Shown here piece after piece: positions 12,265 through 61,586 of a DNA stretch of 64,000 nucleotides. The stretch is from NCBI GenBank assembly GCA_965263035.1, contig OZ253580.1, forward strand, positions 6,134,071 to 6,198,070. Reading direction: 5' to 3'. The notes beneath the pieces were generated by a model. That model worked only from the letters and a program-made list of their open reading frames with translations. It had not been told where the DNA came from and searched no databases. Source of the DNA: Acidobacteriota bacterium. Lineage in GTDB: Bacteria > Acidobacteriota > UBA6911 > RPQK01 > JAJDTT01. A program made the position numbers and the translations under genes. The first letter of the stretch is position 1; every line of letters starts with the position of its first letter.

Positions 12265-12553
12265 GTGTTTTTGCGGCGCAGACTCGGGGAGCTCGTCCAA
12301 AAACCGGCTGGCCAAGCCGGGGGTCACCTGGTGCAACTCCAGCCTCTCATCCTCGCGCCAGGCGAGGAACCGCCCCACCTGGGTGGGCGTAGGCGGTCCG
12401 GGTGTGGGGATTGGAGAGCCGGACGGAGAAGAACTCATCGGCCGCGAAGCAGGCCGCCTTCCCGGCTCTCACGAGAACAGCCGGGAAGGCCCCTTCGAGG
12501 TCATTTCAGGAGAGCGAATCGGCGGTTTTCGGGAGGAGTTCCAAGTCCGCCAT
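12265..12553 (-). pseudogene. Tyrosine recombinase/integrase, N-terminal remnant
   Basis: MADLELLPKTADSLS*NDLEGAFPAVLVRAGKAACFAADEFFSVRLSNPHTRTAYAH/QVGRFLAWREDERLELHQVTPGLASRFLDELPESAP matches the EFF..ISNPHTR.AYA..V.RFL.W core-binding domain of phage-integrase-family recombinases. TGA at 12506-12508, frameshift near 12382, catalytic domain lost. Confidence 0.8.
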
Positions 12554-12559
12554 AAAAGA

Positions 12560-12582
12560 TACGTATAATATACTTTATCGTA
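12560..12582. repeat. Site B copy 1 (attI-like position, next to the recombinase start)
   Basis: TACGTATAA-TATACT-TTATCGTA; contains TATAAT at 12564-12569. Confidence 0.7.
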
Positions 12583-12800
12583 ATCTATACCATGCTCCGG
12601 ACCTTCTGATTTTGCGCGCCGGCCGATGTCCGGAGCCGTCCTCTCCTTCCCGCATCCGGTGATCCCACTGGGGTGAAAAACGAGGTCAGAGACCCATCCA
12701 TTGAGTCGGTGGCACCGTTTACACTTCGGCCAGAAAGGATTCCCCCGCATCCCTGAATACTGTTGCCGACGCTACCGTCTACCTGGAGGAACCGTTCCAG

Positions 12801-15083
12801 ATGTCAGTCCACTTTCCGAAGCCCTCGCATCTTAGCCGTCACTCCACGACTTCTCTAAGGGTCCTCGTTTTGAGCTTGGGCCTGCTGGCCACGCCAGAGG
12901 CAGCCACGGCTGAGATCGTCCCCGTCTGCGACCGGACCCCAGAGGTGCGCGACGAGATCGTGAAGCTCGTGCCAGAAGTCAGCGATTGTGCCGATGTGAC
13001 CGAGTCGCACCTAGCCGAGATTAGACGGGATTTCTTTCACGGCGGCCTGGAGCGAGTATACGTCTTAGGGTTTCCCAGTACTCGCAGGCTTCCCCCGCCC
13101 CCACTCAGAGAGTTGAAAGTGGGCGATTTTTCTGGACTTTCTTCACTGCGCACACTCTATTTGGATCGCACTGGATTGATGACCCTGCCGGAAGAGATTT
13201 TCTCCGGCCTCTCCTCCCTGGAAGCTCTCCTCCTGGGTAACAATGGGCTGAGCACCCTGCCGGCGGAGGTCTTCTCCGGCCTCTCCTCCCTGGAGACGCT
13301 CTACCTGCATAACAATGGGCTGAGCACCCTGCCGGCGGAGGTCTTCTCCGGCCTCTCCTCCCTGGTATATTTCCGCCTGGATGGCAACCTGGCGGCTCCC
13401 CTACCTGTCAACGTTTCATTGGAGTGGGTTGATCCCGGCCGATTCCAGGCCAGAGCGCCAACAGGCGCGCCCTTTGAGATCCACCTTCCTATAACTGTAA
13501 CCAACGGCATGCTTCACAGGGGGGCGTCCCATCTCACGATTCCCGCAGGGCGGGAATCCAGCGACGTGCTTTCGGTATCTCGACAGCCCGGAACGACCTC
13601 GCCGGTCACCGTCGAGATTGCACAATTCCCGGAGAAACCTGTGCGCCACATCGGTTACGAGCTGGTCAGACCCTCTTTGCCCCTGACTTTACTGACACCG
13701 CTTTCTCTGGACTTCCCCCATTTCGCCAACGGGGCGGCCATCACCTCCGAGTTGGTGATCGTGAATGTCGCGGCCACCCCCCTCCAGCCGGCCCTCTACT
13801 TCTTCGACAGAGAGGGAGACCTCATGGCCCCAGCATCCATGGTAGACGTCGGGGAAGACTGGTTCATCCGGTCCGACGGAGCCTTGACCGTGAGGAAGGA
13901 AATAGAGCCCCTGGGAGAGCTCACGATCTCGACCCACGGGCGAGGACCGTTGGTGACCGGCTCGGCGAGGGCCCTGGCCGACGGTCCCATAGGCGGGGTC
14001 TTGCGCTTTGACAGCCCGGATATCGGCGTCGCCGGGGTGGGAACGGGGTCCCCCTCACCCGACGCCATCTTCCCCGTGCGCCGCCAGGAATCCGGAATCA
14101 ACACCGGGGCGGCGATTCGGAATCTGGGAGACGATCCAGTGACCGTCCAATGCCAACTAATGCAAGATGGCCAGGTCTTGGAAGAGAGGGACATTCCCCT
14201 GGCCGGCGAGGGGCAGACCGCCCGGTTCATCGACGAGTTGTTCCCTGCGACCGATACGTTGGACTTTGTGGGATCGGTGCGCTGCACCGAATCCGAAGGC
14301 GGCCTGTTCACCGGCGTGGCTTTGGAGATGGATTTCCAGAACCGGGTGTTCACCACCTTGCCTGTAGTCCCCGTTCCGCCGATGCGGACCCAGGATTACA
14401 CGCAACTGCACTTCGCCCATTTTGCCAACGGTGCCTCCATCACTTCCGACCTGGTATTCGTGAACGTGGCCAACACGGCCGTGGCGCCGGCCATCTATTT
14501 TTACGATGGCTCAGGCCGTCTCATCGCCCCGGAAATGGTGGTGGACGTCGGGGAAGATCTCCAGGTCCGGATGGACGGATCTCTGACCGTTCAGGCGGAC
14601 GTGGCCCCGCTGGGGGAACTCACGGTCTCCACCCACGGCCGGGGGAATCTGGTGACCGGGTCGGTGAAAGTCATCGCCAATGGTCCCATCGGTGGATTCC
14701 TGCGCTTCGACAACCCCGAGATCGGAGTCGCGGGGGTCGGGGCCAGCGGGGCGGTCCAGGACGCGATCTTCCCGGCTCGACATCAGGCGGGAGGAATCCG
14801 CACGGGAGTGGCCATCCGCAATCTGAAGCCGGCCGCCATCGAAGTCAGCTGCCAACTGATGCAAAACGGCAGGGGTGTGGAAGAGAAGGAAATCCCTCTG
14901 TCCGGCAATGGGCAGACGGCCCAGTTCATCCACGAGTTGTTCACCAAGACCATCACAGCCGACTTTGTGGGATCGGTGCGCTGCACCGCCTCAGAGGACG
15001 GGAGGTTCACCGGATTGGCGCTGGAGATGGACGAGGACAACCGCATCTTCACCACCTTGCCCGTGGTGCCGGTCCGGCGATGA
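12801..15083 (+). CDS. Secreted LRR protein with two constant C-terminal ~230-aa domains (family I)
   Basis: Signal-like N-terminus, PVCDRT..V.DCADVT cap, typical-class LRRs (LSTLPAEVFSGLSSL), 2x LDFPHFANG...NRIFTTLPVVP. Confidence 0.88.
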   Translation: MSVHFPKPSHLSRHSTTSLRVLVLSLGLLATPEAATAEIVPVCDRTPEVRDEIVKLVPEVSDCADVTESHLAEIRRDFFHGGLERVYVLGFPSTRRLPPPPLRELKVGDFSGLSSLRTLYLDRTGLMTLPEEIFSGLSSLEALLLGNNGLSTLPAEVFSGLSSLETLYLHNNGLSTLPAEVFSGLSSLVYFRLDGNLAAPLPVNVSLEWVDPGRFQARAPTGAPFEIHLPITVTNGMLHRGASHLTIPAGRESSDVLSVSRQPGTTSPVTVEIAQFPEKPVRHIGYELVRPSLPLTLLTPLSLDFPHFANGAAITSELVIVNVAATPLQPALYFFDREGDLMAPASMVDVGEDWFIRSDGALTVRKEIEPLGELTISTHGRGPLVTGSARALADGPIGGVLRFDSPDIGVAGVGTGSPSPDAIFPVRRQESGINTGAAIRNLGDDPVTVQCQLMQDGQVLEERDIPLAGEGQTARFIDELFPATDTLDFVGSVRCTESEGGLFTGVALEMDFQNRVFTTLPVVPVPPMRTQDYTQLHFAHFANGASITSDLVFVNVANTAVAPAIYFYDGSGRLIAPEMVVDVGEDLQVRMDGSLTVQADVAPLGELTVSTHGRGNLVTGSVKVIANGPIGGFLRFDNPEIGVAGVGASGAVQDAIFPARHQAGGIRTGVAIRNLKPAAIEVSCQLMQNGRGVEEKEIPLSGNGQTAQFIHELFTKTITADFVGSVRCTASEDGRFTGLALEMDEDNRIFTTLPVVPVRR

Positions 15084-15123: not shown

Positions 15124-15147
15124 GTCCGTTAACTGAAATTATCGGAC
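15124..15147. repeat. Site A copy 1
   Basis: GTCCGTTAA-CTGAAA-TTATCGGAC, followed by the conserved GGGAAAAGGGAGG...GAATCAGCCCC tail. Confidence 0.85.
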
Positions 15148-15475: not shown

Positions 15476-16987
15476 ATGAGACAAATACTGCTAGCTGTAT
15501 TCCTGCTGGCCCCGCTCGCCCGAGAGGTTCAGAGCAAGGACCAGACCGATCCACCCTATGCGGGCACCGTCTGGATCGACCCGGACATCATCACACCATC
15601 AGATCCGACTGCGCTCGTGAGCGTGACGGATGCCGGACGGGGACAACGGACGATGTTCGACCTGCGGGTCAAGGACTGGATCGTGGTCAACGCCTATTTG
15701 TTCATGGCCCGATTTGATGATGGCCTGACCGCGGAGATTCAGGTCAACCCAGAGTTCGGCAGTGCATCGGACGCGATGGTGGAAGCAAGCAAATATGGGA
15801 GATCCATCGGCCAATTGCCGACGCTACTTCGAACCAATGTCGAGACGGTCTGGATCCATAAAGGAAATGCGCCTCTCGGGGGTGGAAACAACAGTATTCT
15901 CATCCATACAGATTTTCCGGACGAGTATTTGGAGGAGGGATTGGTCCACGAGGGGGCGCACACTTCCCTGGACCCACCCTGGATGGGGATTGTCAACGCC
16001 GTCGATTGGCGCGCCGCCCAGACGGCCGATGATAACTTCATTTCCGACTACGCACGAGATCATCCGGACCGAGAAGACATCGCCGAGTCGTTCCTGCCGT
16101 ACCTGGCTGTCCGATATCGTTCGGCTCGAATCTCCCGATCTTACGAGCGGACAATATTGGAGACGATGCCGAATCGGATCGCTTACCTTGACCGACTTCT
16201 CCAGGCTCAATCGGACAACGCGTTGCATCCAATCACGTTGGACCTTCGACAGTATCTGAGCTTTGCGCATTTCGGGAATGGAGGGTCCATCACCTCGGAC
16301 CTGGTGTTAGTGAACGTGGAGCCCTCGGCGACTTACCCGGCCATCTACTTCTACGATCGAATGGGTGAACTCATCGACCCCGAATCGGTGGTGGACGTGA
16401 CGGAAGATCTGGAAGTCCGGGAGGATGGAGCGTTGACCGCCCGGACGGGGATTGAGCCTCTGGGTGAACTGGTGATTTCGACCCATGGACGAGGGAAGTT
16501 GGTGACCGGATCGGTGACGGTGTTCTCCGACATCGTGCGCTCTAATCTCTGGGGCGACAAAAACCGAGAGGACGCGGGCGGCGCGGCCCGCATCGGCGGG
16601 GTCCTGCGGTTCGACGCCCCGTCCCTGGGCGTGGCCGGCGTGGGGGCCAGTGCGCCCGTAAACGACGTCATTTTCCCGGCGCGCCGCCAAGAGGGCGGAA
16701 TCAACACCGGAGCCGCAATCCGGAACCTGGGAGAGAACCCGATCGAAGTGAGTTGCCAATTGATGAAAAAAGGCGCGGTATTGGAGATGAAGGACATTTC
16801 ACTGGCCGGTAACGGCCAGACGGCCAAGTTCATCCACGAGTTGTTCACCCAGACCGATACGTCCGATTTCGTCGGGTCGGTTCGTTGCACCGCTCCTGAT
16901 GGTGAACGATTCACCGGAATCGCCCTGGAGTTGGATGATAGAAACCGGATCTTCACTACCTTGCCAGTGGTGCCCATCCAGCGATGA
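15476..16987 (+). CDS. Secreted zincin-like metallopeptidase with one constant C-terminal domain (family I)
   Basis: Signal peptide, HEGAH plus downstream EDIAES, then LSFAHFGNG...NRIFTTLPVVPIQR. Confidence 0.82.
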   Translation: MRQILLAVFLLAPLAREVQSKDQTDPPYAGTVWIDPDIITPSDPTALVSVTDAGRGQRTMFDLRVKDWIVVNAYLFMARFDDGLTAEIQVNPEFGSASDAMVEASKYGRSIGQLPTLLRTNVETVWIHKGNAPLGGGNNSILIHTDFPDEYLEEGLVHEGAHTSLDPPWMGIVNAVDWRAAQTADDNFISDYARDHPDREDIAESFLPYLAVRYRSARISRSYERTILETMPNRIAYLDRLLQAQSDNALHPITLDLRQYLSFAHFGNGGSITSDLVLVNVEPSATYPAIYFYDRMGELIDPESVVDVTEDLEVREDGALTARTGIEPLGELVISTHGRGKLVTGSVTVFSDIVRSNLWGDKNREDAGGAARIGGVLRFDAPSLGVAGVGASAPVNDVIFPARRQEGGINTGAAIRNLGENPIEVSCQLMKKGAVLEMKDISLAGNGQTAKFIHELFTQTDTSDFVGSVRCTAPDGERFTGIALELDDRNRIFTTLPVVPIQR

Positions 16988-17180: not shown

Positions 17181-17211
17181 AGAGTACGATAATTGCACTT
17201 TATCGTACTCT
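17181..17211. repeat. Site B copy 2
   Basis: Perfect 12-bp inverted repeat AGAGTACGATAA-TTGCACT-TTATCGTACTCT. Confidence 0.88.
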
Positions 17212-17420
17212 CCACCACGCTCCTGACTGCCTCGGGAGAGCGTCCCTCGGCATCGGTCTGGAAACCGCTGTCGCCTCTCTGGTGGACGTCGCCCGCCGGT
17301 ACCGGTGGCCTGAGCCACCCCTTCGGCAAGTCGTTTCCGAGTTTTGGTCCCTGGGGCGGCGGGCTGGTATTCTCCAAGGCACGCCATGTCCACTCGTTCC
17401 AGGCGGCAGCAGGAGTCCGC

Positions 17421-20400
17421 TTGATCAGTCCTCTACTCGGTTCATTCTCGGTTCCGTTTTTTGCCTGGTGGCTGTTTTTCGTCCTGTCGCCACCGCAAAC
17501 CGGCGGCCCCTCGTCAGAGCACGGGCGCCGGACGGACGACTCGATCGCACCTCAGGCGCAGGAACCGGGGGAGACGATTCTGTACTTCCCGGATTACGTG
17601 GATGGGGGCGGCTGGTCGGTGCAGCTGGTGCTCAGCAACGTCGACCCGGAGACCGCGGCCGAGGTTCGGGTGGATGTCTACGACCCGGACGGACAGCCGG
17701 TCCGGGATCTGTTCGATTCCGATTTGACGTTGGAAATCCCCTCACTGGGCAGTCGAGTCTTGAGAAGCGCCGGCTCCGGAGCCCTTCGGCGAGGGTGGAT
17801 CGAGGTCCAGACCCGTTCGGCCGCAGTGAGTGGATTGTTGACCTACCGAGACACCCAATCGGGGATCGAAGTCGGCGTCAAACCCGTTGCGTTGGGACAA
17901 CGGTTCGCTTTGTTCGTGGAGGAATCGCCGACGGTCGGCGCCGGAGTCGCCGTGTACAAGACGGACGCCGCGGCCCGCGTCGAGCTTCGAATCCGCAACG
18001 AGGAAGGCCACGACCCCATGGAGGGAGGGGTCGTCCGCTGGGGGGATTTCCGCCAAGCGGCTCGGACGCTTCCGGAATGGTTCGATGTCCCCGGGGTCGA
18101 CACGGAATTCCTGAGGGATTTTCGCGGCCTGTTGTTCCTGGAGACCGAGGACGATTCCCGGTTCGCCCCGCTGGGGTTGCGGTTCGGGAAGGGAACCTCT
18201 TCGCTTTCGGCGGTACCGGCGATCCGGACCCAGAGTCAGGAACCTCAAGAGGCGGCCCTGGTCTTTCCCGACTACGTGGATGGCGGCGGCTGGTCGGTGC
18301 AGTTGGTGCTCAGCAACGTCGACCCGGATGCTGCGGCCGAGGTTCGGGTGGATGTCTACGACCCGGACGGACAACCGGTCCGGAATCTGCTCGATTCCGA
18401 TTTGACGTTCGAGGTTCCGAGCCAGGGCAGTCGAGTCTTGAGAAGTGCCGGCTCGGGCGCCATTCGGCGAGGTTGGATTCAGGTCGAGACCGATGCGGCC
18501 GCAGTCGGTGGACTGTTAACCTACCGAGACGCCCGAACGGGGATCGAGGTCGGCGTCGAGCCCATCCGGTTGGGGAATGAATTCGCTCTGTTCGTGGAGG
18601 AATCGGAGACGATCGGGGCGGGTCTGGCCCTCTTCAACCCGGAGGCGTCATCCAGGATCGAACTGAGGCTCCGCGACGAGGAAGGCAACGATCCGTTGGA
18701 CGGAGTGTACGTCCCCTGGAGAGACTTCCACCAGGCGGCGCGCACACTCCCGGAATGGTTCGACGTCGAAGGCGTGGATACGGGATTTCTGAGGGACTTT
18801 CGCGGTCTCCTGTTCCTGCGAACGGAGGACGAATCCGGGTTCGCCCCGCTGGGGCTGCGGTTCGGGAAGAGGTCCTCGTCGCTCTCGGCGGTGCCGGCGA
18901 TTCGGATCCCGGAGGGAGGCGGGATCGACGGCGGCCAGGCCCCGCCCCCGACGGTGACGCTTTCGGCATCGCCGCCGTCGATCGATCGGGGCCAGAGCAC
19001 GACGTTGACCTGGTCGTCCACGAATGCGGAGAGCGCCGAGATCACTCCGGACATCGGCGGGGTGCCGACTTCGGGCACGCGGAAGGTGTCGCCGAACGTG
19101 ACCACGACCTACCGCATCACGGCGACGGGAGCCGACGGACAGACGGCGACGGCATCGGCGACGGTGACGGTGGCCGTTTCCGAGCGGGCGGCGCTGAGGG
19201 CGCTGTTCGATGCGCTGGGCGGATCGGGTTGGAGCCACAGTAACAACTGGCTGACGGACACTCCCCTGGGCGACTGGTACGGGGTCGAAGTCGATAGCCA
19301 GGGGCGGGTGATCGGACTGCGGATGGCGGTCTGGGTCGATACTGAAGACGGTGGAAGAGAAAAACTCGGGAACGGATTGACCGGGGTGATCCCGCCGGAA
19401 CTGGGTTCGCTCCCCCACCTGAGGGTCCTGGATCTCAGTCATAACCGACTGGAGGGGCCGATCCCGGCGCAACTCGGGAGCCTCTCCAGCCTGCAGGTGC
19501 TGGACCTCAGTGGGAACCAGCTGACGGGCCCGATCCCGCCCGAACTGGGGAGCCTTTCCAACCTGCAGCGGCTGAACCTCGGGGGGAACCGGCTGACGGG
19601 CCCGATCCCGCCCGAACTCGGTTCGCTTTCCAATCTGCAGTGGCTGTTCCTCAGTGGGAACCAGCTGACGGGCCCGATCCCGCCCGAACTCGGTTCGCTT
19701 TCCAATCTGCAGTGGCTGTTCCTCAGTGGGAACCAGCTGACCGGTCCGATCCCGCCCAGTTTTTTGCAGCTTGAGCAACTAGGATATTTCTATTTCTCCG
19801 ATAATTTGGGACTCTGCGCCCCCGGTACAACCGGTTTCGTCGATTGGCTGAAAGGGATCGAGCAACACGACGGTCCGTACTGTAACCAGTCCGACGTGGC
19901 CGTGATCGAGTCCCTCTACCAAGCCACCGGCGGAGCGAATTGGACGAACTCCGACGGCTGGCTCGGGGAGGGCGCCGTGAGTGATTGGTACGGGATCCGA
20001 GCCGACTCCCTGGGACGGGTGACGGGTCTCGATCTGAGTGACAACGGACTGGAGGGCCGGGTTCCGGGCAACTTGGGCCAACTGTCGCAGATGACCGAGT
20101 TGCGGATCGGTGGCAACGCCCTTTCCGGCCGGTTGCCGCTCATCTTGACCCGCCTCCCTCTTCACGAGTTCCATTACGCGGACACCGAGTTGTGTGCTCC
20201 GACCGAGGCGTCGTTCCAGGCTTGGCTGAACGCCATTCCGTCGCACGACGGAACCAACATGGATTGTGCGCCGCTCACGGACCGCGACATCCTCGTGTCG
20301 CTCTACGACGCAACTGGCGGGCCGGACTGGACCAACAACGAGAACTGGCTGACCGATACGTCGCTGGGAGATTGGTCCGGGGTCGAGGTCGATGGCCGAG

Positions 20401-22718: not shown

Positions 22719-22763
22719 GAGGGACGGATCGTCCTCCACTCGGATAACAAACTCCGTAGACTG

Positions 22764-22791
22764 ACGTCCGTTAACTGAAATTGACGGACGT
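22764..22791. repeat. Site A copy 2
   Basis: ACGTCCGTTAA-CTGAAA-TTGACGGACGT. Confidence 0.88.
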
Positions 22792-22878
22792 TCTCTGGGA
22801 AAAGGGAGGATGCCGGGGGGTGCGAATCAGCCCCAAGCCGACCGGAAACACGGGTCAGAAGAAGACGGCCTGTCCCCG

Positions 22879-23331
22879 TCAGGAGGGATCAGGATACGAT
22901 AATTGCACTTTATCGTAATGAGGAGCGACTGGATCGAGGACCTGGAGCCCCAGTGATCCACCGGCGCCAGACCAGATCGAACTATTTGAGGTCTTCTCGG
23001 GAAATAGATTGCCGATTCGTGGAGACTGATCCCCAACCGTCGGACCGGAAGGCCATCGATGGCCTTCCACCCGGAGTCCCCAGGGCCAGTCAACTGCCCC
23101 TGGAACCGAAGGTTCCAACACACGCGGCCCATCCTCGGCGGCCCTCTGGAGACCCATGTAGACCCTGTTCACGCGCCCAGGGAAGTAAATCAGCAGGAGG
23201 TCACCTTTCTTCACATGCTTCCTTAACCGGCGGCCTGTGTCCTCGCTGAAGTGCTGATGCCGGAGATCGTTGCAAATCCACTCCTGCTTTGGGTTTTCGT
23301 TGGCCCCTTTCATCGCTTGCCAGATAGCCAT
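22879..23331 (-). CDS. Hypothetical protein, possibly EVE/PUA-like; its 3' end reads through site B3
   Basis: 150-aa ORF with VKKGDLLLIY; the last residues (HYDKVQLSYPDPS) are encoded by the site B element itself. Confidence 0.5.
   Translation of the reverse strand: MAIWQAMKGANENPKQEWICNDLRHQHFSEDTGRRLRKHVKKGDLLLIYFPGRVNRVYMGLQRAAEDGPRVLEPSVPGAVDWPWGLRVEGHRWPSGPTVGDQSPRIGNLFPEKTSNSSIWSGAGGSLGLQVLDPVAPHYDKVQLSYPDPS
22895..22917. repeat. Site B copy 3
   Basis: TACGATAA-TTGCACT-TTATCGTA. Confidence 0.88.
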
Positions 23332-23377
23332 TGACGGTCCTCTCCTCTTGACATTCCTGCCCAGTCGAAAATACTCT

Positions 23378-23399
23378 CCGGGTAACGTACTTTACCGTA
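23378..23399. repeat. Site B copy 4 (hybrid type)
   Basis: CCGGGTAA-CGTACT-TTACCGTA, followed by the same ~220-bp leader that follows B1 (12583-12800). Confidence 0.7.
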
Positions 23400-23617
23400 A
23401 TCTAAACCACGCCCCTGACCTTCTGATTTTGCGCGCCGGCCGACGTCCGGAGCCGTCCTCTTTTTCCCGCATCCGGTGAGCCCATTGGGGTGAAAAACGA
23501 GGCCAGGACCTGATCCGCCGAGTCGGGGATCCGTTCTACACTTCGGCCAGAAGGAGCTTCCCCGCATCCCTGAATACTGTTGCAGGCGCTCCCATCCACC
23601 TGGAGGAACCGTTCTGG

Positions 23618-28625: not shown

Positions 28626-28649
28626 CTCCTTTAACTGAAATTAACGGCC
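28626..28649. repeat. Site A copy 3
   Basis: CTCCTTTAA-CTGAAA-TTAACGGCC. Confidence 0.78.
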
Positions 28650-48770: not shown

Positions 48771-48801
48771 AGGGTACGATAATTCCACTTTATCGTACCC
48801 T
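48771..48801. repeat. Site B copy 6
   Basis: Perfect AGGGTACGATAA-TTCCACT-TTATCGTACCCT. Confidence 0.88.
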
Positions 48802-49131: not shown

Positions 49132-49372
49132 ATACTAAGACTGATCCGCATAGCTACTGCCGTGCTCGTGGCGGGTGGCCTTGCCGTCGTGGTGCTCTCG
49201 GCACAGGACGATCTCGACACGCTCCGCTAAGCCGCCGAGCAGGGTGACGACGTCGGGCAGTTCAGCCTCGGGTTCATGTACCACGAGGGGAAGGGCGTCC
49301 CGAAGGACGATGTCGAAGCGGTACGCTGGTTCCGACTCGCCGCCAAGCAAGGCTCCGCCAAGACGCAATTCT
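49132..49372 (+). pseudogene. Sel1-like repeat protein fragment
   Basis: ...SAQDDLDTLR*AAEQGDDVGQFSLGFMYHEGKGVPKDDVEAVRWFRLAAKQG with an internal stop. Confidence 0.8.
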
Positions 49373-49513
49373 GCGAGGAGGCAGTCCCATGAAGGATCGA
49401 GGCCACCCCCGTTCGCGCGCGGTTGGTTCGGTGCGCCCCGTGATGGGGGACGACCCTGGTCGCCCGCCACCCGCGGCTTTGTCGAGGCGTTGCCGAAGAA
49501 GACCGAAGGCGCT

Positions 49514-52500: not shown

Positions 52501-55500
52501 GATCCGCATCACTGAAGGAGGCGGGATCGACGGCGGACACCCACCCCCTCCGACGGTGACGTTGTCGGCTTCTCCGAAGTCGATCGATCGGGGCCAGAGC
52601 ACGACATTGAGTTGGTCGTCGACAAGCGCGGAGAGCGCGGAGATCGAACCGGACATCGGGGAGGTTCCCACGTCGGGCACACGGCGGGTGTCGCCGAACG
52701 CGACCACGACCTACCGCATAACGGTGACGGGAGCGGACGGACAGACGGCCACGGCATCGGTGACGGTGACGGTGGCCGTTTCGGAGCGGGCGGCGCTGAG
52801 GGCGCTGTTCGATGCGCTGGGCGGATCGGGTTGGAGCCACAGTAACAACTGGCTGACGGACACTCCCCTGGGCGACTGGTACGGGGTCGAAGTCGATAGC
52901 CAGGGGCGGGTGATCGAACTGCGGATGGCGGTCTGGGTCGATACTGAAGACGGTGGAAGCGAAAAACTCGGGAACGGATTGAACGGGGTGATCCCGCCGG
53001 AACTGGGTTCGCTCGCCCACCTGAGGGTCCTGGACCTCAGTGAGAACCAACTGGAGGGGCCGATCCCGGCGCAACTCGGGAGCCTCTCCAGCCTGCAGGT
53101 GCTGGACCTCGGGGGGAACCAGTTGACGGGCCCGATCCCGCCCGAACTGGGCAGCCTTTCCAACCTGACGTGGCTGGCCCTCCGTGGGAACCAGTTGACG
53201 GGCCCCATCCCGCCCGAACTGGGCAGCCTTTCCAACCTGCAGCGGCTGTCCCTCTGGGGGAACCAGCTGACGGGCCCCATCCCGCCCGAACTGGGCAGGC
53301 TCGCCGACCTAGAGTCGCTGGATGTCTTCGGTAACGACCTTACGGGTCCGATTCCGCCTGAGCTGGGTCAACTTGCCAGCCTGACCCGGTTGCAGCTCGG
53401 CTCGAACAGCTTGACGGGTACGATCCCGCGGAGCCTTCTGGATCTCACCAGGCTCACCCGTTTCTACTTTGAGCGAAACGAGGATCTCTGCGCGCCCGGC
53501 GTTGCCGCTTTTGCCGACTGGCTGGGAGCGATGGAGGATACCTCCGGACCGTACTGCAACGAGTCAGACGTGGAGGCGCTGGAGCTGCTCTTCGAGACCG
53601 CAGGCGGCACCGGCTGGACCAGGGCAGATGGCTGGCGTGCTACCCATGTGCTGGGGGAATGGCACGGCGTGACGGCCGACGCCCTCGGTCGGGTGGAAGC
53701 ACTTGACCTCAGGGGCAACGGGCTTGCCGGAGAGATGCCGAACTGGCCCCGGGGAGCACTGGCCAACATGACCGACCTGAGGATAGGCGCCAACGCCGGC
53801 CTTGCCGGCCGACTGCCGCTGTCACTCGCCGATTTGTCCCTTCGTGTGCTCGACTATGCGGGTACGGAACTGTGTGCTCCTGCCGACGCGGCCTTCACCA
53901 GATGGCTCAATACCGTTTCGTCGCACCAGGGGACCGGGGTCGAGTGCGCTCCGCTGTCGGACCGCGAGATCCTCGAAAGCTTCTATGAAGCGACCGGCGG
54001 GCCGAACTGGTACCACAACGACAACTGGCTTACGGATGCGCCGCTCGGAGATTGGTACGGCGTCGAAGTCGACGGGCAGGATAGGGTCACCGAACTGGAA
54101 ATCCAATTGAATCGCTTGACGGGCCAGCTCCCGCCCGAACTCGGCGGCCTGGCCAATCTGCGGTCGCTCTTCATCTGGCTGGACGGAACAACCGGTCCCA
54201 TCCCGCCCGAGCTCGGCAACCTCGCCAACCTGCGGTCCCTGCGCCTCATGAGCTTCGCCGACACCCCCCACCTGACCGGCCCCATCCCGCCGGAACTCGC
54301 CAACCTCGCCAACCTGCAAGTCCTGGAACTCTGGAACAACGACCTGACGGGTCCCATCCCGCCGGAACTCGGCGACCTGGCCCGCCTGAGGCACCTGGGC
54401 CTCGACCAGAACCGCCTGACCGGCCCGATCCCGACCGAGCTCGGCCGTCTCGCCAACCTGAATTCCCTGCATCTCTCGAAAAACGACCTGACCGGTCCGA
54501 TCCCGACCGGGCTGGGCGGCCTGGCCAACATGCGGTCGCTGAATCTCGCTTCGAATCGCCTTTCGGGCCCAATCCCGACCGGGCTGGGTGGCCTGGCCAA
54601 TGTGGAGTCTGTGTACCTTGGCGACAACGAGTTGACGGGTCCGGTGCCGGCGGTGTTGGGCGGCCTGATTCACCTGCGCCACCTCGCCCTGCAGGCGAAC
54701 CCCGGCATGTCCGGAGCCCTTCCGGCCAGCCTGACGAACCTCGCGTCCCTTGAGACGTTGCAGACCGGCGGCACGGACCTCTGCGCGCCCTCCGACGCCG
54801 GGTTCCTCGACTGGTTGGAGCGCGTCGCGAACCGACAGGTGGCTCTCTGCGGCCATGAACCCGCGATGGCCTATCTCGTCCAGGCGGTCCAGTCGCGGGA
54901 GTTCCCGGTTCCGCTCGTTGCCGGCAGGGAGGCGCTGCTGCGCGTCTTCGTCACCGCCGGCCGTGACAACGACGAGCGGCTTCCCCCGGTGCGGGCCTCG
55001 TTTTACCTGAACGGCGCCCTCGCGCACGTCGCCGAGATCGCCGGCGGCCCGGGCCCGATCCCCACCCAGGTCGACGAGGGATCTCTGGCGACATCGGCCA
55101 ACGCCGCGGTTCCGGCGGAGTTGGTTCAGCCAGGCTTGGAGATGGTGGTCGAGATCGACCCGGACGGAACGCTCGAGTCCGGGCTTGGCGTGGCGAGGCG
55201 GATCCCGAATACGGGCCGAGCGGCGGTCGACGTGCGGGCCGTTCCGCTTCTCGATCTCACGCTGGTGCCGTTCCTGTGGGCGGCGGATCCGGACTCGACA
55301 ATTCTGGAGCCGGTCGTCGAGATGGCCGCCGACCCCGAGGGCCACGAGCTGCTCGAGTTCATGCGCACGGTGCTCCCGGTGGGCGACCTGGACGTAAAGG
55401 CTCACGAGCCCGTGCTCAGCTCGACCAACGACGGATTCGAACTGGTCGAACAGGTCCGGGCGATCCGGGTGATGGAGGGCGGGACCGGGTACTGGATGGG

Positions 55501-56368
55501 CACGATGGCGGGGCGCTGGGGTACTGCCATCGTCGGTACTGGGGGCATCGGCCGGGGCGTGGTGAGTTTCGTCCTTCTGGACAAAGCGCAGGATGTCGGA
55601 CCCAACCGTCACTTCGCCCGCGTCACCGCGCACGAGTTCGGCCACAACTTCAGCCTCGGGCACGCGCCGTCGTGTGGGGCGGGTCTCCCGGACTCGGCGT
55701 ATCCGCAGCCGGACGGGTCGACAGGGGTATGGGGATACGACTTCCGCGATGGCAGTCTGGTACCGCCAAGCTGGACCGACGTGATGGGCTACTGTGAGGG
55801 TGACCCCGAATGGATCAGCGACTACCACTTTTCCAAAGCGCTTCACTTCCGCCTCTTCGACGATCACCGGGCGAGCGTGACCGCTCAAGAAGCAGAGTCC
55901 CTCCTCCTGTGGGGCGGTGCAGACGCCGACGGCGAACTCTACCTGAATCCGGCCTTCGTGATCGATGCCGCGCCCGTGCTGCCCGATGCCGCTGGTGAAC
56001 ACCGGATCGCCGGACGCACGGCCGACGGTGCCGAGCTCTTCTCCCTCAGCTTCGCCATGCCCGAGACCGCCGATGGCGATGGCAGTTCGTCTTTCGTGTT
56101 TGCCCTGCCCCTGCACCCCGAGTGGTCCGGCCAGTTGGCGCGCATCACCCTGTCCGGCCCCGCCGGATCGGACACGCTGGATGAGGAAACCGACCGTCCG
56201 GTGACCATCCTGCGCAATTCCCGGACCGGCCAGATTCGCGGTATCCTGCGCGGCTCGGCCGCCACCCCCCCCAACCTGGACATCACAGTGTCCGCATTGT
56301 CGTTGGACCCGGGATTGGAGAGGTTGACCAGCCGCGGCATACCGGATCCGGACGACTGGGCGCAATAG
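49514..56368 (+). CDS. S8 subtilase fused to a family II protein (2x constant domain, LRRs, M66-like peptidase)
   Basis: ORF open from 49175. VAILDRGID, GHGTTTTGIAAG, GAVSAAAPIVTG (atypical catalytic Ser motif), WGYGKVD; HEFGHNFSLGH. Confidence 0.88.
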   Translation: MISVIRTVLAFLLIIGVGDVGLALDRVRVETSVDKAVAALGVSGAGVIVAILDRGIDWESNDFRNEDGSTRIAYIFDLFDDSAAAAPGNSYGRGTIYTREQIDQALFSGTRLPTRDAVGHGTTTTGIAAGNGRNSADGKYRGIAPNATIISVKIATGAPAHGNEPAEPPWYVGTAGVNVAMDFVVDKARELSMPVVMLLNVGSIGGPTDGTSAFCRRIDETVGPDHPGIVFVNGTGDDGTPAKPPRRAAGDVPNGGTLDLRLALDTGEGVLEVWYEQSQEFAVSIHTPMGMLGPFPASQFTAKGTGVNVYHYRGGTDHWGSTNGNRLQLIHFDGAAGPGDYLLRLDHTASSAGSSIHFDASLNAANFSGRFLNFVTPGSISDGATAFRNVAPNSYVIRTKWKDIDGVDRGLIGEGNVGEFWTGSSVGPTVDGRVGVDVSAPGDRIVTTYAPRSAWGVSRWLLIEGGGGLYGMAGAVSAAAPIVTGIIALMLEVDPTLDALSVKKILQETARADEFTGPTPNPLWGYGKVDAFEALMAVRLQAQDDTAPAGTESFSFLYFPDYVDGGGWSVQLVLSNVDPEAAAEVQVDVYDPDGQPVLDLFDSDLTLEIPSLGSRVLKSAGSGTIRRGWIQVETGTAAVSGLLTYRDAQSGIEVGVKPVELGQQFALFVEESPSVGAGVAVYMTDAAARVELRIRNEEGHDPLEGGVVRWGDSRQAARTLPEWFAGEGVDTEFLRDFRGLLFLETEDDSPFAPLGLRFGKGTSSLSAVPAIRTQSQEPQEAALVFPDYVDGGGWSVQLVLSNVDPEAAAEVQVDVYDPDGQLVRDLFDSDLRLEIPALGSRVLRSAGSGSIRRGWIQVQTGAATVGGLLTYRDVQSGIEVGVEPVQLGHEFALFVEESGTIGAGLALFKPDVSSRIELRLRDEEGNDPLEGVFLPWRDFHQAARTLPEWFDVSGVDTGFLADFRGLLFLRTEDDSRFAPLGLRFGKGTSSLSAVPAIRITEGGGIDGGHPPPPTVTLSASPKSIDRGQSTTLSWSSTSAESAEIEPDIGEVPTSGTRRVSPNATTTYRITVTGADGQTATASVTVTVAVSERAALRALFDALGGSGWSHSNNWLTDTPLGDWYGVEVDSQGRVIELRMAVWVDTEDGGSEKLGNGLNGVIPPELGSLAHLRVLDLSENQLEGPIPAQLGSLSSLQVLDLGGNQLTGPIPPELGSLSNLTWLALRGNQLTGPIPPELGSLSNLQRLSLWGNQLTGPIPPELGRLADLESLDVFGNDLTGPIPPELGQLASLTRLQLGSNSLTGTIPRSLLDLTRLTRFYFERNEDLCAPGVAAFADWLGAMEDTSGPYCNESDVEALELLFETAGGTGWTRADGWRATHVLGEWHGVTADALGRVEALDLRGNGLAGEMPNWPRGALANMTDLRIGANAGLAGRLPLSLADLSLRVLDYAGTELCAPADAAFTRWLNTVSSHQGTGVECAPLSDREILESFYEATGGPNWYHNDNWLTDAPLGDWYGVEVDGQDRVTELEIQLNRLTGQLPPELGGLANLRSLFIWLDGTTGPIPPELGNLANLRSLRLMSFADTPHLTGPIPPELANLANLQVLELWNNDLTGPIPPELGDLARLRHLGLDQNRLTGPIPTELGRLANLNSLHLSKNDLTGPIPTGLGGLANMRSLNLASNRLSGPIPTGLGGLANVESVYLGDNELTGPVPAVLGGLIHLRHLALQANPGMSGALPASLTNLASLETLQTGGTDLCAPSDAGFLDWLERVANRQVALCGHEPAMAYLVQAVQSREFPVPLVAGREALLRVFVTAGRDNDERLPPVRASFYLNGALAHVAEIAGGPGPIPTQVDEGSLATSANAAVPAELVQPGLEMVVEIDPDGTLESGLGVARRIPNTGRAAVDVRAVPLLDLTLVPFLWAADPDSTILEPVVEMAADPEGHELLEFMRTVLPVGDLDVKAHEPVLSSTNDGFELVEQVRAIRVMEGGTGYWMGTMAGRWGTAIVGTGGIGRGVVSFVLLDKAQDVGPNRHFARVTAHEFGHNFSLGHAPSCGAGLPDSAYPQPDGSTGVWGYDFRDGSLVPPSWTDVMGYCEGDPEWISDYHFSKALHFRLFDDHRASVTAQEAESLLLWGGADADGELYLNPAFVIDAAPVLPDAAGEHRIAGRTADGAELFSLSFAMPETADGDGSSSFVFALPLHPEWSGQLARITLSGPAGSDTLDEETDRPVTILRNSRTGQIRGILRGSAATPPNLDITVSALSLDPGLERLTSRGIPDPDDWAQ

Positions 56369-56412: not shown

Positions 56413-56436
56413 GTCCGTTAACTGAAATTAAAGGAC
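56413..56436. repeat. Site A copy 7
   Basis: GTCCGTTAA-CTGAAA-TTAAAGGAC. Confidence 0.85.
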
Positions 56437-57076: not shown

Positions 57077-57116
57077 AGCGCGGACACTTATTGGTGAGTC
57101 GCCTGCCGAGAGACTA

Positions 57117-58335
57117 GTACCCCGTAACACTTAAAGTTGTGGATACAGGCTCTTCAGCTTGATCCGTGCATCCTCCGTCTTGAACTGCCAGTCGATCTCG
57201 GTTTGCCGTTGGTTCCGATCCGCAACCCAAGCCCCGATCTCACGTTGCATCCCGGCCAGGCTTGGAATCCGGCGGTCCAGGCATTGTCCGCACAGCGCGC
57301 TCAATTCGATTTCTGCAATGTTGAGCCAACTGCCGTGCTTAGGCGTGTAGTGGATTTCCAGTCGTTGTGCCAGTTGGCGAGCGTGTCGAGGCTCGTAGGT
57401 CGCGTACAGCGATTCGATTCCGTGCGGGTTCAGGTTGTCCAAGACCAGGACCACCCGCTCGGCCTCCGGGTATCGCCTCTCCAACATGCCCTCGATCCAC
57501 CGGGCCCAATCCTGTCGCGTGCGCCGCTCGGTCGCCTCCACATGGCAGCGGCCGGTCAGTGGCTCCACCTCCAGGAAGATCTGCGCGACCCCGTTGCGCA
57601 CATACTCATGCTCGACTCGCTCCGGCTGGCCGGGCGCGACCGGCAAAGGCTCCCGCACTTCTCCGATCAACTGCTTGTTGGTCTCGTCCATGCAGACCAC
57701 CGGACGACGGGGGTCGTACGGACGGGCATAGACTTCTAAAACGTCCTCCATGCAGGCTACGAATGCGGCGCTGCCCCGGGGCGGGATCCGCCAATACTTC
57801 TTCCGATGAGGCTGCAGTTGGTTTTTTTTAGCGTCCGCTGCACCGTCATCACCGACACCCGCTCGACCCAGCCCAGTTCCACTACTTTCTCCGCCAGCAG
57901 GCGCAGGGTCCAGCGCTTCCGTCCTGGCGGGGCCGGGGAGCAGGCCAAGGCGACCAAGCGAGCCTCGAACGCGCCGTCGAAGATCACTTTCCGCGGCGGC
58001 TGCACCCGCCGCTTGCGCTCCAAGGCGAACTCCAAACCCTGCTCCACAAACCGCCGTTTCAAGTGCTCGATCGTGCGGGCCGAGACGCCCAGCGCCTCGG
58101 CCACCCGGGCCACGGTCCATCCCGGCCCTTCCGGCCCGCGGTCGCACAACAACAGAGCCCGCGCGTACAGGAACCGCTTGCCGGTGGTCTTGGTCGCGGC
58201 CCGGGTCAAGGCCTTCAATTCTGAGCGCTCTTCCACAGTGAGCGTGACACGATAGCGTGGTGCCATGAGAACTCCTCCTTCCGAGTCCTCCAGCCTCCCA
58301 CCATAGTATACGAACAATTACATGTTATTGGGTAC
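57117..58335 (-). mobile_element. IS630-family insertion sequence
   Basis: TIRs GTACCCCGTAACA / GTACCCAATAACA; TA duplication within CTAG (57115-57116, 58336-58337). Confidence 0.92.
57131..58266 (-). CDS. IS630 transposase, two ORFs joined by a -1 frameshift at A8 (57822-57829)
   Basis: HTH ORF (GRKRWTLRLLA) plus DDE ORF (VVCMDE, VLDNLNPH, YTPKHGSWLNIAEIE). Confidence 0.92.
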
Positions 58336-58754
58336 TAGCCTGCACTGCCCCGTCGCTGAAGAGGACTCTGCGTCGCCTCCCTTGTGGTGGAGCCTTTTCC
58401 TCCACTGGATCGCGGAAACGTACTTTGCCGACAATAATTTGCCCCCCACCGAGCCGGCTCGCAGGAGGCCCGTAGCGCTTCCGGACCTGGCGCTGGAGCG
58501 CCAGGCGTCGGGCCGTTTCGCCGGTCCCGGGCCGATTTCGGCCGATCCCGAAAAAAGAGGCACCCTCAGAGGGCGTGTGGGGTGCGTCCGGACTAAGGGT
58601 GAGGCATAGGCCTCTGGCGCTTGCGGGCCGGGAACGCGCCGCACTCCGGGACCGCCTGGGACAGCTCGAAGGGCGCATGGCCCGCCTCAACGAGACATCG
58701 GACAAAACAATGGGCGATTCGCGGTCGGGTGCCCAGTCTTGTTCGCCCGACGCG

Positions 58755-59497
58755 CTACCTTCGGACTCCGCTCCGCCCGCTAACGTGATTGAGCCGGTGC
58801 TCGAAGTACCGGCGGAACACTTCGTTCTCGGGATACGCTGCCGGATCGGCCCAGATTGCCCCAAGGCGTCCCACCAATCCGGCAATCCAATCCGCTGCCT
58901 GGAGGGTCTGATACCGGTGGCTTTCCAGATGGAACGGCGGCTCGATAAGACGCCGGCGGCGTTCCGTCCTCGCATACATGCTCCGTGCCGCCTCGGTGAT
59001 CAGGGCAGATCGTTGATCGTGTTCATCGAGAATCAGGAAAAAATCCCGGGCGGATTACAATCCTCTTCGCAAAATCCATCAATCCGCTTGATTGCCTCAA
59101 GAAATACCCGTGTGTAGAGCCTGTTCGAATTGTGCGCCCTTGGCGGCGCAGTCTTTTTGAGACCGACATAGAAGACGAATCCGCCGAGCGCTTCGATCTT
59201 GTTGAACAGCCGGTTGGTGAAATTCCTGAGTTCTGCGGACCGCGTCACGTTCTTGACAGTGTAGAGGCTCGCCCTCTTCTCTTCCCATAGGGCCGGATGT
59301 TTCCCCGACCGGTTGATCTCAAATTCGAGAAGCTCGCACTTGCGCCGGAAGAACCAGGTTCCGAACCCACGCACCACTTCGGAAGCGAGGACGAAGCCCG
59401 CCAGGCCAAACACTGGACTGTCCTTGTACCTTCGGTCTCGCCTGCTGACGTAGGGGCCGATATGCCCGAATTCATCAAGGTATGCGAAATACGTCAC
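58755..59497 (-). pseudogene. DUF3800-domain protein, frameshifted near 59040
   Basis: YFAYLDEFGH at the N-terminus; LESHRYQTLQAADWIAG in the downstream frame. Confidence 0.75.
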
Positions 59498-59643
59498 CGA
59501 CGGGGTCTCCGGAAACACGAAAGCCCGTGCCGGAGCACGGGCCTCGGAAAGAGAGCAAGACAAGCTTGCATCTCATAGATAACTATACCTCTTAAAAAGA
59601 TGACCTGTCGAGAATGGCTGGAGACGGCGATACTCTGGAGAAC

Positions 59644-59667
59644 GTCCGTTAACTGAAATTAACGCAC
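59644..59667. repeat. Site A copy 8
   Basis: GTCCGTTAA-CTGAAA-TTAACGCAC. Confidence 0.85.
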
Positions 59668-59783
59668 CTTCTGCGGGAAAAGGGAGGATTTCACCGTTTC
59701 TCTCGGGGGCTGTGGATCGGACCTGAGCCGACTGAAACATGATCCGAGAGAAGCGGCCCAGATGGCTCCAGGAGGGATCTGGA

Positions 59784-59806
59784 TCCAACAAGATCAACTT
59801 ATTGGA
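59784..59806. repeat. Site B copy 7
   Basis: TCCAACAA-GATCAAC-TTATTGGA, at the expected position in the A-B element. Confidence 0.72.
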
Positions 59807-59855
59807 CTCTATATATGTTCTGCGGAGGAGGCCAGGGTCAGCTATTCTCGGTAGA

Positions 59856-61586
59856 TCATCGTGGAATGGGAACGACGGGCAGGGTCGTGAAGATGCGGTT
59901 GACGGCGTCCAGCTCCAGGGCCACTCCCGTGAACCTTCCCCCTCCTGACACCGTACAGCGTACCGATCCTTCAAAGTCGGACGTATCGGTCTCGGGGAAC
60001 ATCTCGTGGATGAATTGCGCCGACTGTCCGTCGGCTGCTAGCGGGATTTCCGTCTCTTCCAACACGAGGCCCCCCTGCATCAATCGGCACATCACAATCA
60101 TCTCGAGGCCGGTCAAGTTGCGGACCGCGGCTCCGGTGTTGATTCCGCCCTCCTTTCGGCGCGCCGGGAAGATCACATCGCTGACCGGTGGACTCGTCCC
60201 CACGCCAGCCACTCCCAGCCCTGGACTGTCGAAGCGCAGGAACCCACCGAAAGGGCCATTCGCGACGACCTGCACGGATCCGGTCACCAGGTCCCCCCGG
60301 CCGTGGGTCGAAAAGGTCCGCTCTCCCAGCGGAGCCAACTCCGTCTGGGTGCCCAAAGCCCCATCCTCATGGATTTCCAAGTCTCCAGAGACGTCCACTA
60401 CCGATTCGGCAGCAATGGGGGTCCCCACCGTATCGTAAAAGTAGATGGCGGGTCGGATAGCCGTGGTTCCTATATTCACCAGCACCAAGTCGGAGAATGT
60501 GGACTCCCCATTGGCGAAATGGGGAAAGCTCAGACCCAGTGCGTCATGAACGATCAAGGGCAAATTGGGAGACTTGACCAGCTCGTAACCGTGATGGAAT
60601 CGCGGCAAGCGCGGCAAATCAGTAATGTCTACAGTGACGGCTGAGATCGTGTCGGGACGACGGGCGATCGTGTGGACGGCGCTTTCGAGGCTCCCGGCAA
60701 GAATAACGATACTGCTTGTGCTGCCTTCAATCTCTCCACTAACCAAAGTGGTGGGCAGGACGATTTCAAAGGGCGCACCCGTATGTGCCTTCGCCAAGAA
60801 TTGACTCTCCCCGACTCGTTCCAGTGATACGACAATGGGCGGCCTCCAAAAATTCACCTGCTCCAGCCGACGCTCTCTCTGCTGCAGCCGAAGCTCTCTC
60901 AGCGAGGAGAGGCCAACGAAGAGCCCGTCCGGCAGGCTGGTCAATTGATTTTCATCCAGGTAGAGATTGGCCAGCTCCGAGAGACCGGAAAAGATACCCT
61001 CCGGCAGGCTGGTCAATCGGTTGCCGTCCAGGTAGAGATCTCTCAGCGAGGCGAGGCCGGAGAAGATGTCCGGCGGCAGACTGGTCCGTCGAATTCCACC
61101 CATCCCAAGAACTTGCAATGAGGCGAGGCCGGAGAAGATGTCTGGCGGCAGGCTCTCCAGTGGATTCGAGGTCATCGAAAGGTATTCCAATGAGCCGAGG
61201 CCGGAGAAGATGTCCGGCGGCAGGCTCTCCAGTTCGTTGTAATTTATCTCGAGTTTTTCCAGCGACTTCAGCCCGGAGAAATCCCCCGACCTTAACTCAT
61301 AAATGGGTGTGGGGCGGCCGTGGTGTGTCGCAAATACAATATACGGACCTGTGAGGATGAGGAACCGAATCTCGCCCAGATGGGCCTCGGTCACATCAGC
61401 GCAATCGCTGACTCCCGGCACCCACTTCACGATCTCATCGCGCACTTCCGGGCTCCGGTCGCAGACTGGAGTGATTTGCGCCATGGTCGATCCCGGTGCG
61501 ACTAACAGGCCTACAGTCAAGAGTGCCGTCAGAAGGGAGGATATGGATTGTTGTCGACGGCGAATTGGAGTCCACTCGGACGACAT
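59856..61586 (-). CDS. Family I LRR protein with one constant domain (inverted relative to the array)
   Basis: PVCDRSPEVRDEIV cap, LESLPPDIFSGL repeats, LSFPHFANG...NRIFTTLPVVPIPR. ORF open from 61961; start uncertain. Confidence 0.87.
   Translation of the reverse strand: MSSEWTPIRRRQQSISSLLTALLTVGLLVAPGSTMAQITPVCDRSPEVRDEIVKWVPGVSDCADVTEAHLGEIRFLILTGPYIVFATHHGRPTPIYELRSGDFSGLKSLEKLEINYNELESLPPDIFSGLGSLEYLSMTSNPLESLPPDIFSGLASLQVLGMGGIRRTSLPPDIFSGLASLRDLYLDGNRLTSLPEGIFSGLSELANLYLDENQLTSLPDGLFVGLSSLRELRLQQRERRLEQVNFWRPPIVVSLERVGESQFLAKAHTGAPFEIVLPTTLVSGEIEGSTSSIVILAGSLESAVHTIARRPDTISAVTVDITDLPRLPRFHHGYELVKSPNLPLIVHDALGLSFPHFANGESTFSDLVLVNIGTTAIRPAIYFYDTVGTPIAAESVVDVSGDLEIHEDGALGTQTELAPLGERTFSTHGRGDLVTGSVQVVANGPFGGFLRFDSPGLGVAGVGTSPPVSDVIFPARRKEGGINTGAAVRNLTGLEMIVMCRLMQGGLVLEETEIPLAADGQSAQFIHEMFPETDTSDFEGSVRCTVSGGGRFTGVALELDAVNRIFTTLPVVPIPR

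Follow-up and report, generated by a model that had tools for sequence, protein, structure and literature searches.

A probable site-specific module system with Xer-like recombinases and dif-like palindromes in an acidobacterial genome

At the end of the 6.198-Mb single-contig genome of an Acidobacteriota bacterium (GCA_965263035.1), nine large plus-strand genes are strung together with short palindromes that recur at their junctions. How was such an array assembled? The stretch analyzed here, called the window, comprises the last 64 kb of this genome (contig OZ253580.1, positions 6,134,071 to 6,198,070; 62% GC), and the nine genes lie between its positions 12.8 and 56.4 kb. A preliminary description had noted a truncated tyrosine recombinase gene 6 nucleotides (nt) from a first palindrome, followed by an array with two kinds of sites, and as an observation this was confirmed as a whole: from the first palindrome, here named B1, onward, a 46-kb array contains eight copies of palindrome A and six B-type sites. 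We consider it probable that the locus represents a system of modules recombined at specific sites; its nearest known counterparts are integrons and the dif modules of Acinetobacter, from both of which it is distinct. The window would contain one of about ten loci of this system.

The recombinase gene of the window (12265-12553, minus strand), which encodes an Xer-like tyrosine recombinase here named RecB, is decayed, with about residues 1 to 104 left. BLASTX of positions 12100 to 12600 (minus strand) against the open reading frames (ORFs) of the genome matched residues 1 to 64 and 65 to 103 of intact paralogues of 327 to 334 amino acids (aa), in two frames. The fragment carries an in-frame TGA at codon 16 and one frameshift, has nothing after about residue 104, and is without the catalytic domain; a TauD-like gene (10988-12184) stands in place of the lost part. 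The identical truncation is found in the congeners G007, G003, and G002. Elsewhere in the genome (G000), four intact RecB genes are located at 2.087, 3.683, 5.547, and 5.656 Mb and two intact genes of a second subfamily, RecB', at 2.913 and 5.708 Mb, besides several fragments. The two subfamilies are about 60% identical. The copy at 5547269-5548477 extends to 396 aa and is about 70 residues longer at its C terminus than the other copies. A third, distant tyrosine recombinase (5660620-5661893, locus L007; 340 aa) is 26% identical to RecB'; an A site lies about 235 nt off at its 3' end, and it has its own AT-rich inverted repeat upstream of the start.

RecB and RecB' contain the Pfam domains Phage_integrase and SAM_1, and all six catalytic residues (R, K, H, R, H, Y) align to the XerD structure 1a0p. 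With a SAM-like N-terminal domain and an R-K-H-R-H-Y catalytic domain, they belong to the Xer family of tyrosine recombinases. They are not equivalogs of XerC or XerD, on whose models they score 114 to 128 bits vs cut-offs of 330 to 335 (114 vs 330 on the XerD model), and the genome has a separate XerD that passes its cut-off as well as an XerC-like gene. A dif candidate, ACGTCGCATAATGAATATTATGTAAACT, lies at 5875243 (5.875 Mb), not far from where the cumulative GC skew peaks (about 5.84 Mb). The recombinase had been described as distinct from the integron integrase IntI, and this holds: scores on the IntI model TIGR02249 were 57 to 65 bits (cut-off, 265), and no match above this cut-off was found anywhere in the genome. 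The ratio of nonsynonymous to synonymous substitutions (dN/dS) among the genome's paralogues, within each subfamily, is 0.19 to 0.29. Judged by their sequences, the intact paralogues, which are under purifying selection, could act in trans, as had been proposed; since the local RecB is an old pseudogene, any activity in the window would be supplied in this way.

All intact genes of the two subfamilies in the genome adjoin a B-type site at the start codon, the arrangement that had been anticipated for intact homologues. B1 lies 6 nt upstream of the start codon in five of five RecB copies, i.e., the four intact ones and the decayed copy of the window, where the site (TACGTATAATATACTTTATCGTA; 12560-12582, plus strand) is 6 nt from the ATG at 12553. 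The palindrome B' (TACGGTAACGTACTTTACCGACA) lies 7 nt upstream of the start codon in both RecB' copies. Among intact orthologues from the genus, B1 was found at the start in five of six, the remaining one (G006) having B1 1.7 kb upstream. The recombinase-linked site is a low-GC, dif-like palindrome of the form CG(A/G)TAA-N6/7-TTA(T/C)CG. It had been given as TAA-N6-TTA; the palindrome is real, while the spacer of B sites is either 6 nt (TATACT in B1) or 7 nt (TTGCACT in the type named B23). Low GC, a palindrome, an inner ATAA/TTAT, and a short spacer are reported as features of dif (PMC2731167), and the RecB-linked site has all of these, its spacer being 6 to 7 nt. Its arms of 8 to 11 nt and its spacer resemble the geometry of the plasmid dif (pdif) sites of Acinetobacter, but the arms are symmetric and not XerC/XerD-specific. 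Such a near-perfect dyad fits a homodimeric enzyme. Palindrome A is of the type GTCCGTTAA-CTGAAA-TTAACGGAC.

The linkage extends well beyond the genus. At least 1,745 database relatives of the recombinase (E ≤ 1e-20) carry generic names only; 393 loci were found among genome contigs, of which 80 were kept for analysis, from Acidobacteriota, Planctomycetota, Chloroflexota, Latescibacterota, Verrucomicrobiota, Binatota-type, and other metagenome-assembled genomes (MAGs). The core CGATAAAGT (at most one mismatch) occurs no more than 130 nt upstream of the start in 33 of 78 loci of several phyla, and a (C/T)GATAA-N6-TTATC(G/A) dyad was counted by hand within about 0.7 kb upstream in about 50 of 80. 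Changes in the arms are symmetric (CGATAA/TTATCG vs TGATAA/TTATCA), and arms that change together fit a dimer-binding site. Outside the genus, the neighbors of the recombinase include insertion sequence (IS) elements, ParA genes, and defense-like genes. RecB relatives are also carried on several Isosphaeraceae plasmids, and on plasmid PALBO2 of Paludisphaera borealis (42.5 kb; locus L158) a 55%-identical relative lies beside a ParDE toxin-antitoxin pair.

Within the genome, 26 A and 29 B-type sites form 14 clusters, and in 10 of these a recombinase gene or fragment lies at most 3.2 kb away. Within 25 kb of such a gene or fragment are 21 of the 26 A sites and 24 of the 29 B-type sites, vs 9% of random positions; the B-type figure is partly circular because the set of B sites includes the nine that directly adjoin a recombinase. 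The 20-nt core of A (at most two mismatches) has 23 genome occurrences, vs none for the reversed control pattern. A is present in 9 of 9 genomes of the genus and in 0 of 32 outside it. In the whole genome, throughout the genus, and in other phyla as well, the sites are tied to this recombinase family, and they do not show the scatter of repetitive extragenic palindromic (REP) elements, the pattern that the preliminary description had set against its own proposal. Eight of the 14 clusters surround the presumed terminus, at positions from 5.17 to 6.19 Mb.

At the typical junction of the array, A lies about 45 nt after the gene stop; then come a mid part (about 105 nt), B, a conserved leader (220 to 400 nt), and the next gene. 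The eight A sites of the window (24 nt, at most three mismatches) start at 15124, 22766, 28626, 29680, 32880, 36990, 56413, and 59644; the starts of the B-type sites are 12560, 17185, 22895, 23378 (a hybrid), 28776, and 48775, and a B' remnant starts at 58411. All share one orientation. The individual junctions, all read on the plus strand, vary in completeness. Site A lies at 15124-15147 and B23 at 17185-17207 (TACGATAATTGCACTTTATCGTA), and a complete element with A (22766-22789), mid part, and B23 (22895-22917) occupies 22766-22917. At 28626-28798, A (28626-28649) is followed by a variant mid part and a B variant, TACAATAAGATCAACTTATCGTA (28776-28798). Other junctions are without a complete element: A at 29680-29703 is followed by a truncated mid part fused directly to a family I leader, with the junction off the site; A at 32880-32903 is fused directly to the leader without B; and A at 36990-37013 has a mid part that runs directly into a family II leader, again without B. 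A B23 variant with a TTCCACT spacer (48775-48797), A at 56413-56436, and an orphan element at 59610-59830 with no gene in front (A at 59644-59667; a decayed B near 59806) complete the series. Copies are homologous from a few nt ahead of A onward, whether the preceding end is that of a family I gene, a family II gene, or something else, and the copy at 59610-59830 has no gene before it at all, so that the earlier statement that the element follows unrelated gene ends stood up.

An Rfam search of the window found no family. A structured-RNA reading was dropped, as the consensus fold of nine A-mid-B copies consists of the two palindromes and a short hairpin without covariation support (local hairpins only; -17 kcal/mol over 233 columns; covariation term, +1.14), and a small ORF in the mid part was rejected because its frame is not kept between copies. 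A promoter/terminator consensus scan yielded 4 promoter-like sites vs 3.6 in shuffled sequences; it flagged no sigma-70 promoter at B and no terminator at A. A sigma-70-like match (TTGACA-16-AATACT, 23348-23375) reads rightward into the hybrid site at 23378 from the edge of a 478-bp module and is kept in the copy of this module at 2.1029 Mb.

Among 29 B-type sites (406 pairs; flanks of 148 nt left and 149 nt right), 64 pairs match on the left only, 29 on the right only, and 6 on both sides. Three discordant pairs are near-identical right up to the site (95%, left only; 99%, right only; 98%, left only). Of the 300 pairs formed by 25 A sites, 8 match on the left only, 36 on the right only, and 2 on both sides. 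The flanks left and right of B and A assort independently. A recombinant joint was found at the inserted 478-bp module (22920-23397, minus strand), which contains a small ORF (22879-23331, minus strand) and is 96% identical to the copy at 2.1029 Mb. Homology between the two ends in the core ACTTTACCG; past it, the window copy continues into a B flank and family I leader and the other copy into a flank found beside RecB' at 2.914 Mb. The site at this joint (23378-23400, plus strand) is a hybrid whose left half is of B' type and whose right half and flank are of B type. Further near-identical modules are common to distant loci of the genome.

An array of paralogues could instead have arisen by duplication and RecA-dependent homologous recombination, with A and B as regulatory DNA (e.g., a 3' hairpin, or an operator or promoter that serves recombinase and array genes alike) and the recombinase uninvolved. 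Leaders to the right of B are alignable over 50 to 220 nt across gene families, the regions 15.4-22.7 and 46.8-56.4 kb resemble a segmental duplication in which both flanks of B match (left, 97%; right, 90%), and a TATAAT hexamer lies within B1. We regard this origin as unlikely. The identity at the hybrid B'/B joint spans only about 9 to 17 nt, which is short for RecA recombination, and the consensus scan gave no sigma-70 promoter at B and no terminator at A. The palindrome adjoins the recombinase across phyla with symmetric arm changes, as expected of the site of a dimeric recombinase. A lies at most 450 nt from the gene end in only 6 of 29 family I/II genes (in the window 5 of 9, in the rest of the genome 1 of 20), and an element that is missing from most cargo paralogues is not a co-duplicated gene flank.

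The genes, on the other hand, might not be cassettes at all if the A-mid-B unit of about 155 nt were a miniature, nonautonomous mobile element moved by RecB or RecB' between genes. The unit at 22764-22919 (156 nt) is 98% identical to a copy at 2.108 Mb, although neither flank is related, and at 5.709 Mb a RecB' gene sits between A and B' in a manner resembling an autonomous unit. In nearly all copies, however, conservation extends past B into the leader, and A and B also occur separately, e.g., A fused to the leader at 32880 and at 6029681. Empty-site pairs and target duplications were not found, and an A site behind the recombinase stop codon, as a self-mobile cassette would have, was seen in only one of seven recombinase genes examined. 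We therefore consider such an element improbable.

Comparison between species places the breakpoints at the sites. The TauD-like gene, the RecB fragment, and B1 are 90 to 95% identical in G007, G003, G002, and G006. Homology to the window then stops at 12587 in G007 and at 12588 in G003, five bases past B1, and earlier in G002 and G006; the sequence after B1 differs in every congener compared. In G007, the only about 5 kb after B1 contain one family I-type gene; an intact RecB' comes next, with B', and a homologue of 58413-59617 at 93% identity follows. In the window, the place of this RecB' is occupied by an IS630-family insertion sequence (57113-58337, minus strand; DDE_3 transposase), and only the right part of B' is left at 58411-58433 (plus strand), the homology restarting at 58413. 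Since synteny ends at B1 and restarts at B', positions 12588-58412 form a hypervariable island between the two. Other RecB loci in G000 and in the congeners are smaller versions of it, and G004 contains two arrays with the order B, gene, A, B, gene, A. The IS630-family element has CTAGTACCC-type inverted ends and 15 more genome copies at 92 to 99.8% identity. To the left of the recombinase, about 9 kb (2110-11060) is absent from the syntenic place in G007, G003, G002, and G006; an element within this stretch, at about 9975-10961, has many repeats in G007.

The orientation of the sites bears on a further explanation, an expression-site switch in which inversions put one silent surface-protein gene behind a single promoter. 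The vpma/Xer1 and vsa/HvsR systems of Mycoplasma and the shufflons act by inversion between opposed sites and use a single promoter. As in vpma/Xer1 and vsa/HvsR, the recombinase here adjoins a surface-protein-like gene family whose conserved 5' leaders carry the site. Some loci of the genome have opposed sites (e.g., B1 on the plus strand at 2.088 Mb and B23 on the minus strand at 2.108 Mb), and the gene next to B1 is sometimes inverted in congeners. In the window, however, the eight A sites and all B-type sites are direct repeats, not the inverted ones of those systems, so that recombination there would delete rather than invert, and there is no sign of a single promoter. Switching of this type appears very improbable.

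We propose instead that the modules are exchanged at their sites. The enzyme would be an accessory Xer-like tyrosine recombinase with the subfamilies RecB and RecB', and its cognate site would be the dif-like palindrome directly upstream of its own start codon. In the genus, copies of B1, B23, and B' together with the second palindrome, A, would delimit the modules. A gene module would run from the right half of B through leader, gene, and 3' flank to the left half of A. The roughly 130 nt between the right half of A and the left half of B would form a short module; at one locus, a recombinase gene substitutes for it. Recombination between like sites would excise, insert, or swap modules. The outcome would be a hypervariable island of large secreted proteins of the leucine-rich repeat (LRR)/protease type, with B1 at its left edge and RecB'-B' at its right edge. 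We infer that the recombinase cuts these sites and that circles or double exchanges transfer the modules, and any assignment of an enzyme to A is equally presumptive.

Several observations weigh against this proposal. At about 29.75, 37.09, and 42.4 kb, junctions lie off the sites, which would also fit duplication. A is retained in G004 and G005, in which only recombinase fragments were matched, and in G008, which gave no recombinase match; an intact RecB is thus dispensable for the persistence of A, again as duplication would have it. Tyrosine recombinases usually require matching spacers, and exchange between B1 and B23 is doubtful because their spacers differ in length and sequence. Of 41 genomes searched, just two contain the perfect 7-nt-spacer B23 type, G000 with 8 sites and G004 with 2. 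B with 25 nt of its right flank is the longest conserved stretch, and RecA-type crossovers would tend to fall there too. Outside the genus, a 13-kb recombinase locus mostly has a single site and no array, and relatives on planctomycete plasmids adjoin ParDE stability genes; single sites and such neighbors fit a role in multimer resolution. Finally, no excised circle, deletion junction, or capture event was seen in the public runs containing the stretch (6 rows, all assembled contigs, none RNA), four of which were compared with the window. These four contain many joints due to paralogous repeats. A relative's contig (X1, record 2) joins 22424-22790 to 29930-31999, omitting about 6.9 kb between two A sites, and is a weak hint only. 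The site-to-site joints 12587>22767 and 22919>29680, with sides of 22 to 28 nt and undefined intervening content, were not used as evidence. Of the earlier idea of cassette capture and shuffling, the species breakpoints at B1 and B' and the independent assortment of flanks support the shuffling of modules; the difference between B1 and the internal B sites, the off-site junctions, and the lack of an observed excision, circle, or capture event in these contigs speak against it.

The cargo consists of two gene families, all genes being on the plus strand unless stated otherwise. The six family I products (760, 503, 1,014, 499, 993, and 569 aa) each have one or two copies of a common C-terminal domain (about 233 aa), and the three family II products are of 1,841, 1,632, and 2,397 aa. 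Most products of both families contain 24-residue leucine-rich repeats, and PKD, M66-like, or subtilase parts occur in some. No Pfam match and no PDB sequence match was obtained for the C-terminal domain of family I, and an Atlas search gave no named relative, returning unnamed acidobacterial clusters only. In family I, LRR proteins of 760 aa (12801-15083), 1,014 aa (23618-26662), and 993 aa (29858-32839) alternate with shorter proteins of 503 aa (15476-16987), 499 aa (27088-28587), and 569 aa (46868-48577). The 503-aa protein combines a signal-peptide-like N terminus, a HEGAH motif, and the family I C-terminal domain. In both it and the 569-aa protein, the HEGAH (HExxH-like) motif stands behind a signal-peptide-like start, which suggests, at the level of sequence, that these two short family I proteins have a secreted metalloprotease head on the common C-terminal domain. 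The leader of the first gene (12583-12800) starts directly at B1 and is 86% identical to 23385-23617, with further matches at 29749-29857 and at 2.088 Mb.

Family II comprises a giant LRR/PKD protein (1,841 aa; ORF listed as 17193-22718), an LRR/PKD protein of 1,632 aa (37348-42246), and a giant protein of 2,397 aa with subtilase S8, PKD, and LRR parts (49175-56368). The first of these must truly start further downstream, because the listed ORF begins within site B. A two-gene module (33003-36369) encoding a 212-aa ORF and a 778-aa LRR protein is 89 to 90% identical to 6.021-6.0245 Mb, where it is preceded by B instead of A. The array had been described as mostly co-oriented, and the nine plus-strand genes and all sites are; apart from the IS at 57113-58337, the array also contains an inverted, broken family II-like gene (42470-45876, minus strand) that is divided between two ORFs of 874 and 326 aa, which overlap. 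The 5' part of this gene and its upstream region (44937-46410) are 98% identical to a locus at 30 kb of the same genome (30449-31928). An IS3-family transposase gene (rve, HTH_21) lies at the window end (63016-63906). A host-interaction role, which had been suggested for the cargo, has no basis in this free-living-type MAG.

How does the system relate to known ones? No published description of the recombinase-plus-site unit or of the module system was found in literature searches. The unit itself is widespread, as the number of database relatives shows, and single-recombinase units offer a parallel to it. Cre/loxP is such a unit, with its own palindromic site linked to the gene. The gene of XerS is likewise linked to its own palindromic site, difSL (PMC2731167). 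As in both, the gene here is linked to its own palindrome, and plasmid-borne relatives lie beside stability genes; by analogy with XerS/difSL, the ancestral unit may have been a resolution-type recombinase with its site adjoining the gene. Those systems, however, use one site per replicon for dimer resolution, whereas about 29 B-type and 26 A sites bound gene modules here. Unlike single-copy XerC/XerD, which act at dif near the terminus, RecB/RecB' have six intact copies, and the genome retains its own XerD, XerC-like gene, and separate dif candidate.

With integrons, the textbook recombinase-built arrays, the locus shares a tyrosine recombinase gene that reads away from an adjacent primary site, a following co-oriented array of site-delimited genes, and, in relatives, array content that diverges from the primary site onward. 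To this extent the integron layout seen in the preliminary description is apt. It does not extend to the recombinase, which is Xer-like and fails the IntI model (57 vs 265 bits), or to the sites: in place of the folded attC of integrons, which forms a single hairpin, there are two separate perfect palindromes, A and B, and two to three site types alternate. Furthermore, the cassettes are 1.5 to 7 kb with long conserved leaders (220 to 400 nt), the island of relatives ends with a second recombinase subfamily that has a site of its own, and many loci are present per genome.

More tentatively, we raise the possibility of a third natural gene-cassette platform beside integrons and dif modules, in which a widespread unit, probably of plasmid-resolution type in origin, turned multilocus in one acidobacterial genus. 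Two or three mutually incompatible sites (A, B, and B') in alternation would permit double-exchange swaps of entire genes for giant secreted proteins between islands, a naturally occurring recombinase-mediated cassette exchange, as well as excision and reinsertion, and the roughly 130 nt beside B may act like cer/psi accessory sequences. If true, cassette platforms arose more than once, and the system would explain how these soil bacteria diversify large secreted LRR/protease-type proteins; it would also provide a new recombinase/site pair, probably free of accessory factors and with natural heterospecific site variants, as a candidate genome-engineering tool. Dif modules have so far been described only in Acinetobacter plasmids. 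In those pdif modules, dif-like sites with spacers of the 6-nt class bound modules recombined by XerC/XerD, content and order are shuffled as here, and the reactions reported involve sites whose spacers are identical or nearly so (PMC13141974). They are described as unique to the Rep_3 plasmids of Acinetobacter, with pdif sites in alternating orientation, whereas the modules described here are chromosomal, share one orientation, alternate two site types, have dedicated recombinase paralogues at the island edges, and carry giant secreted proteins as cargo.

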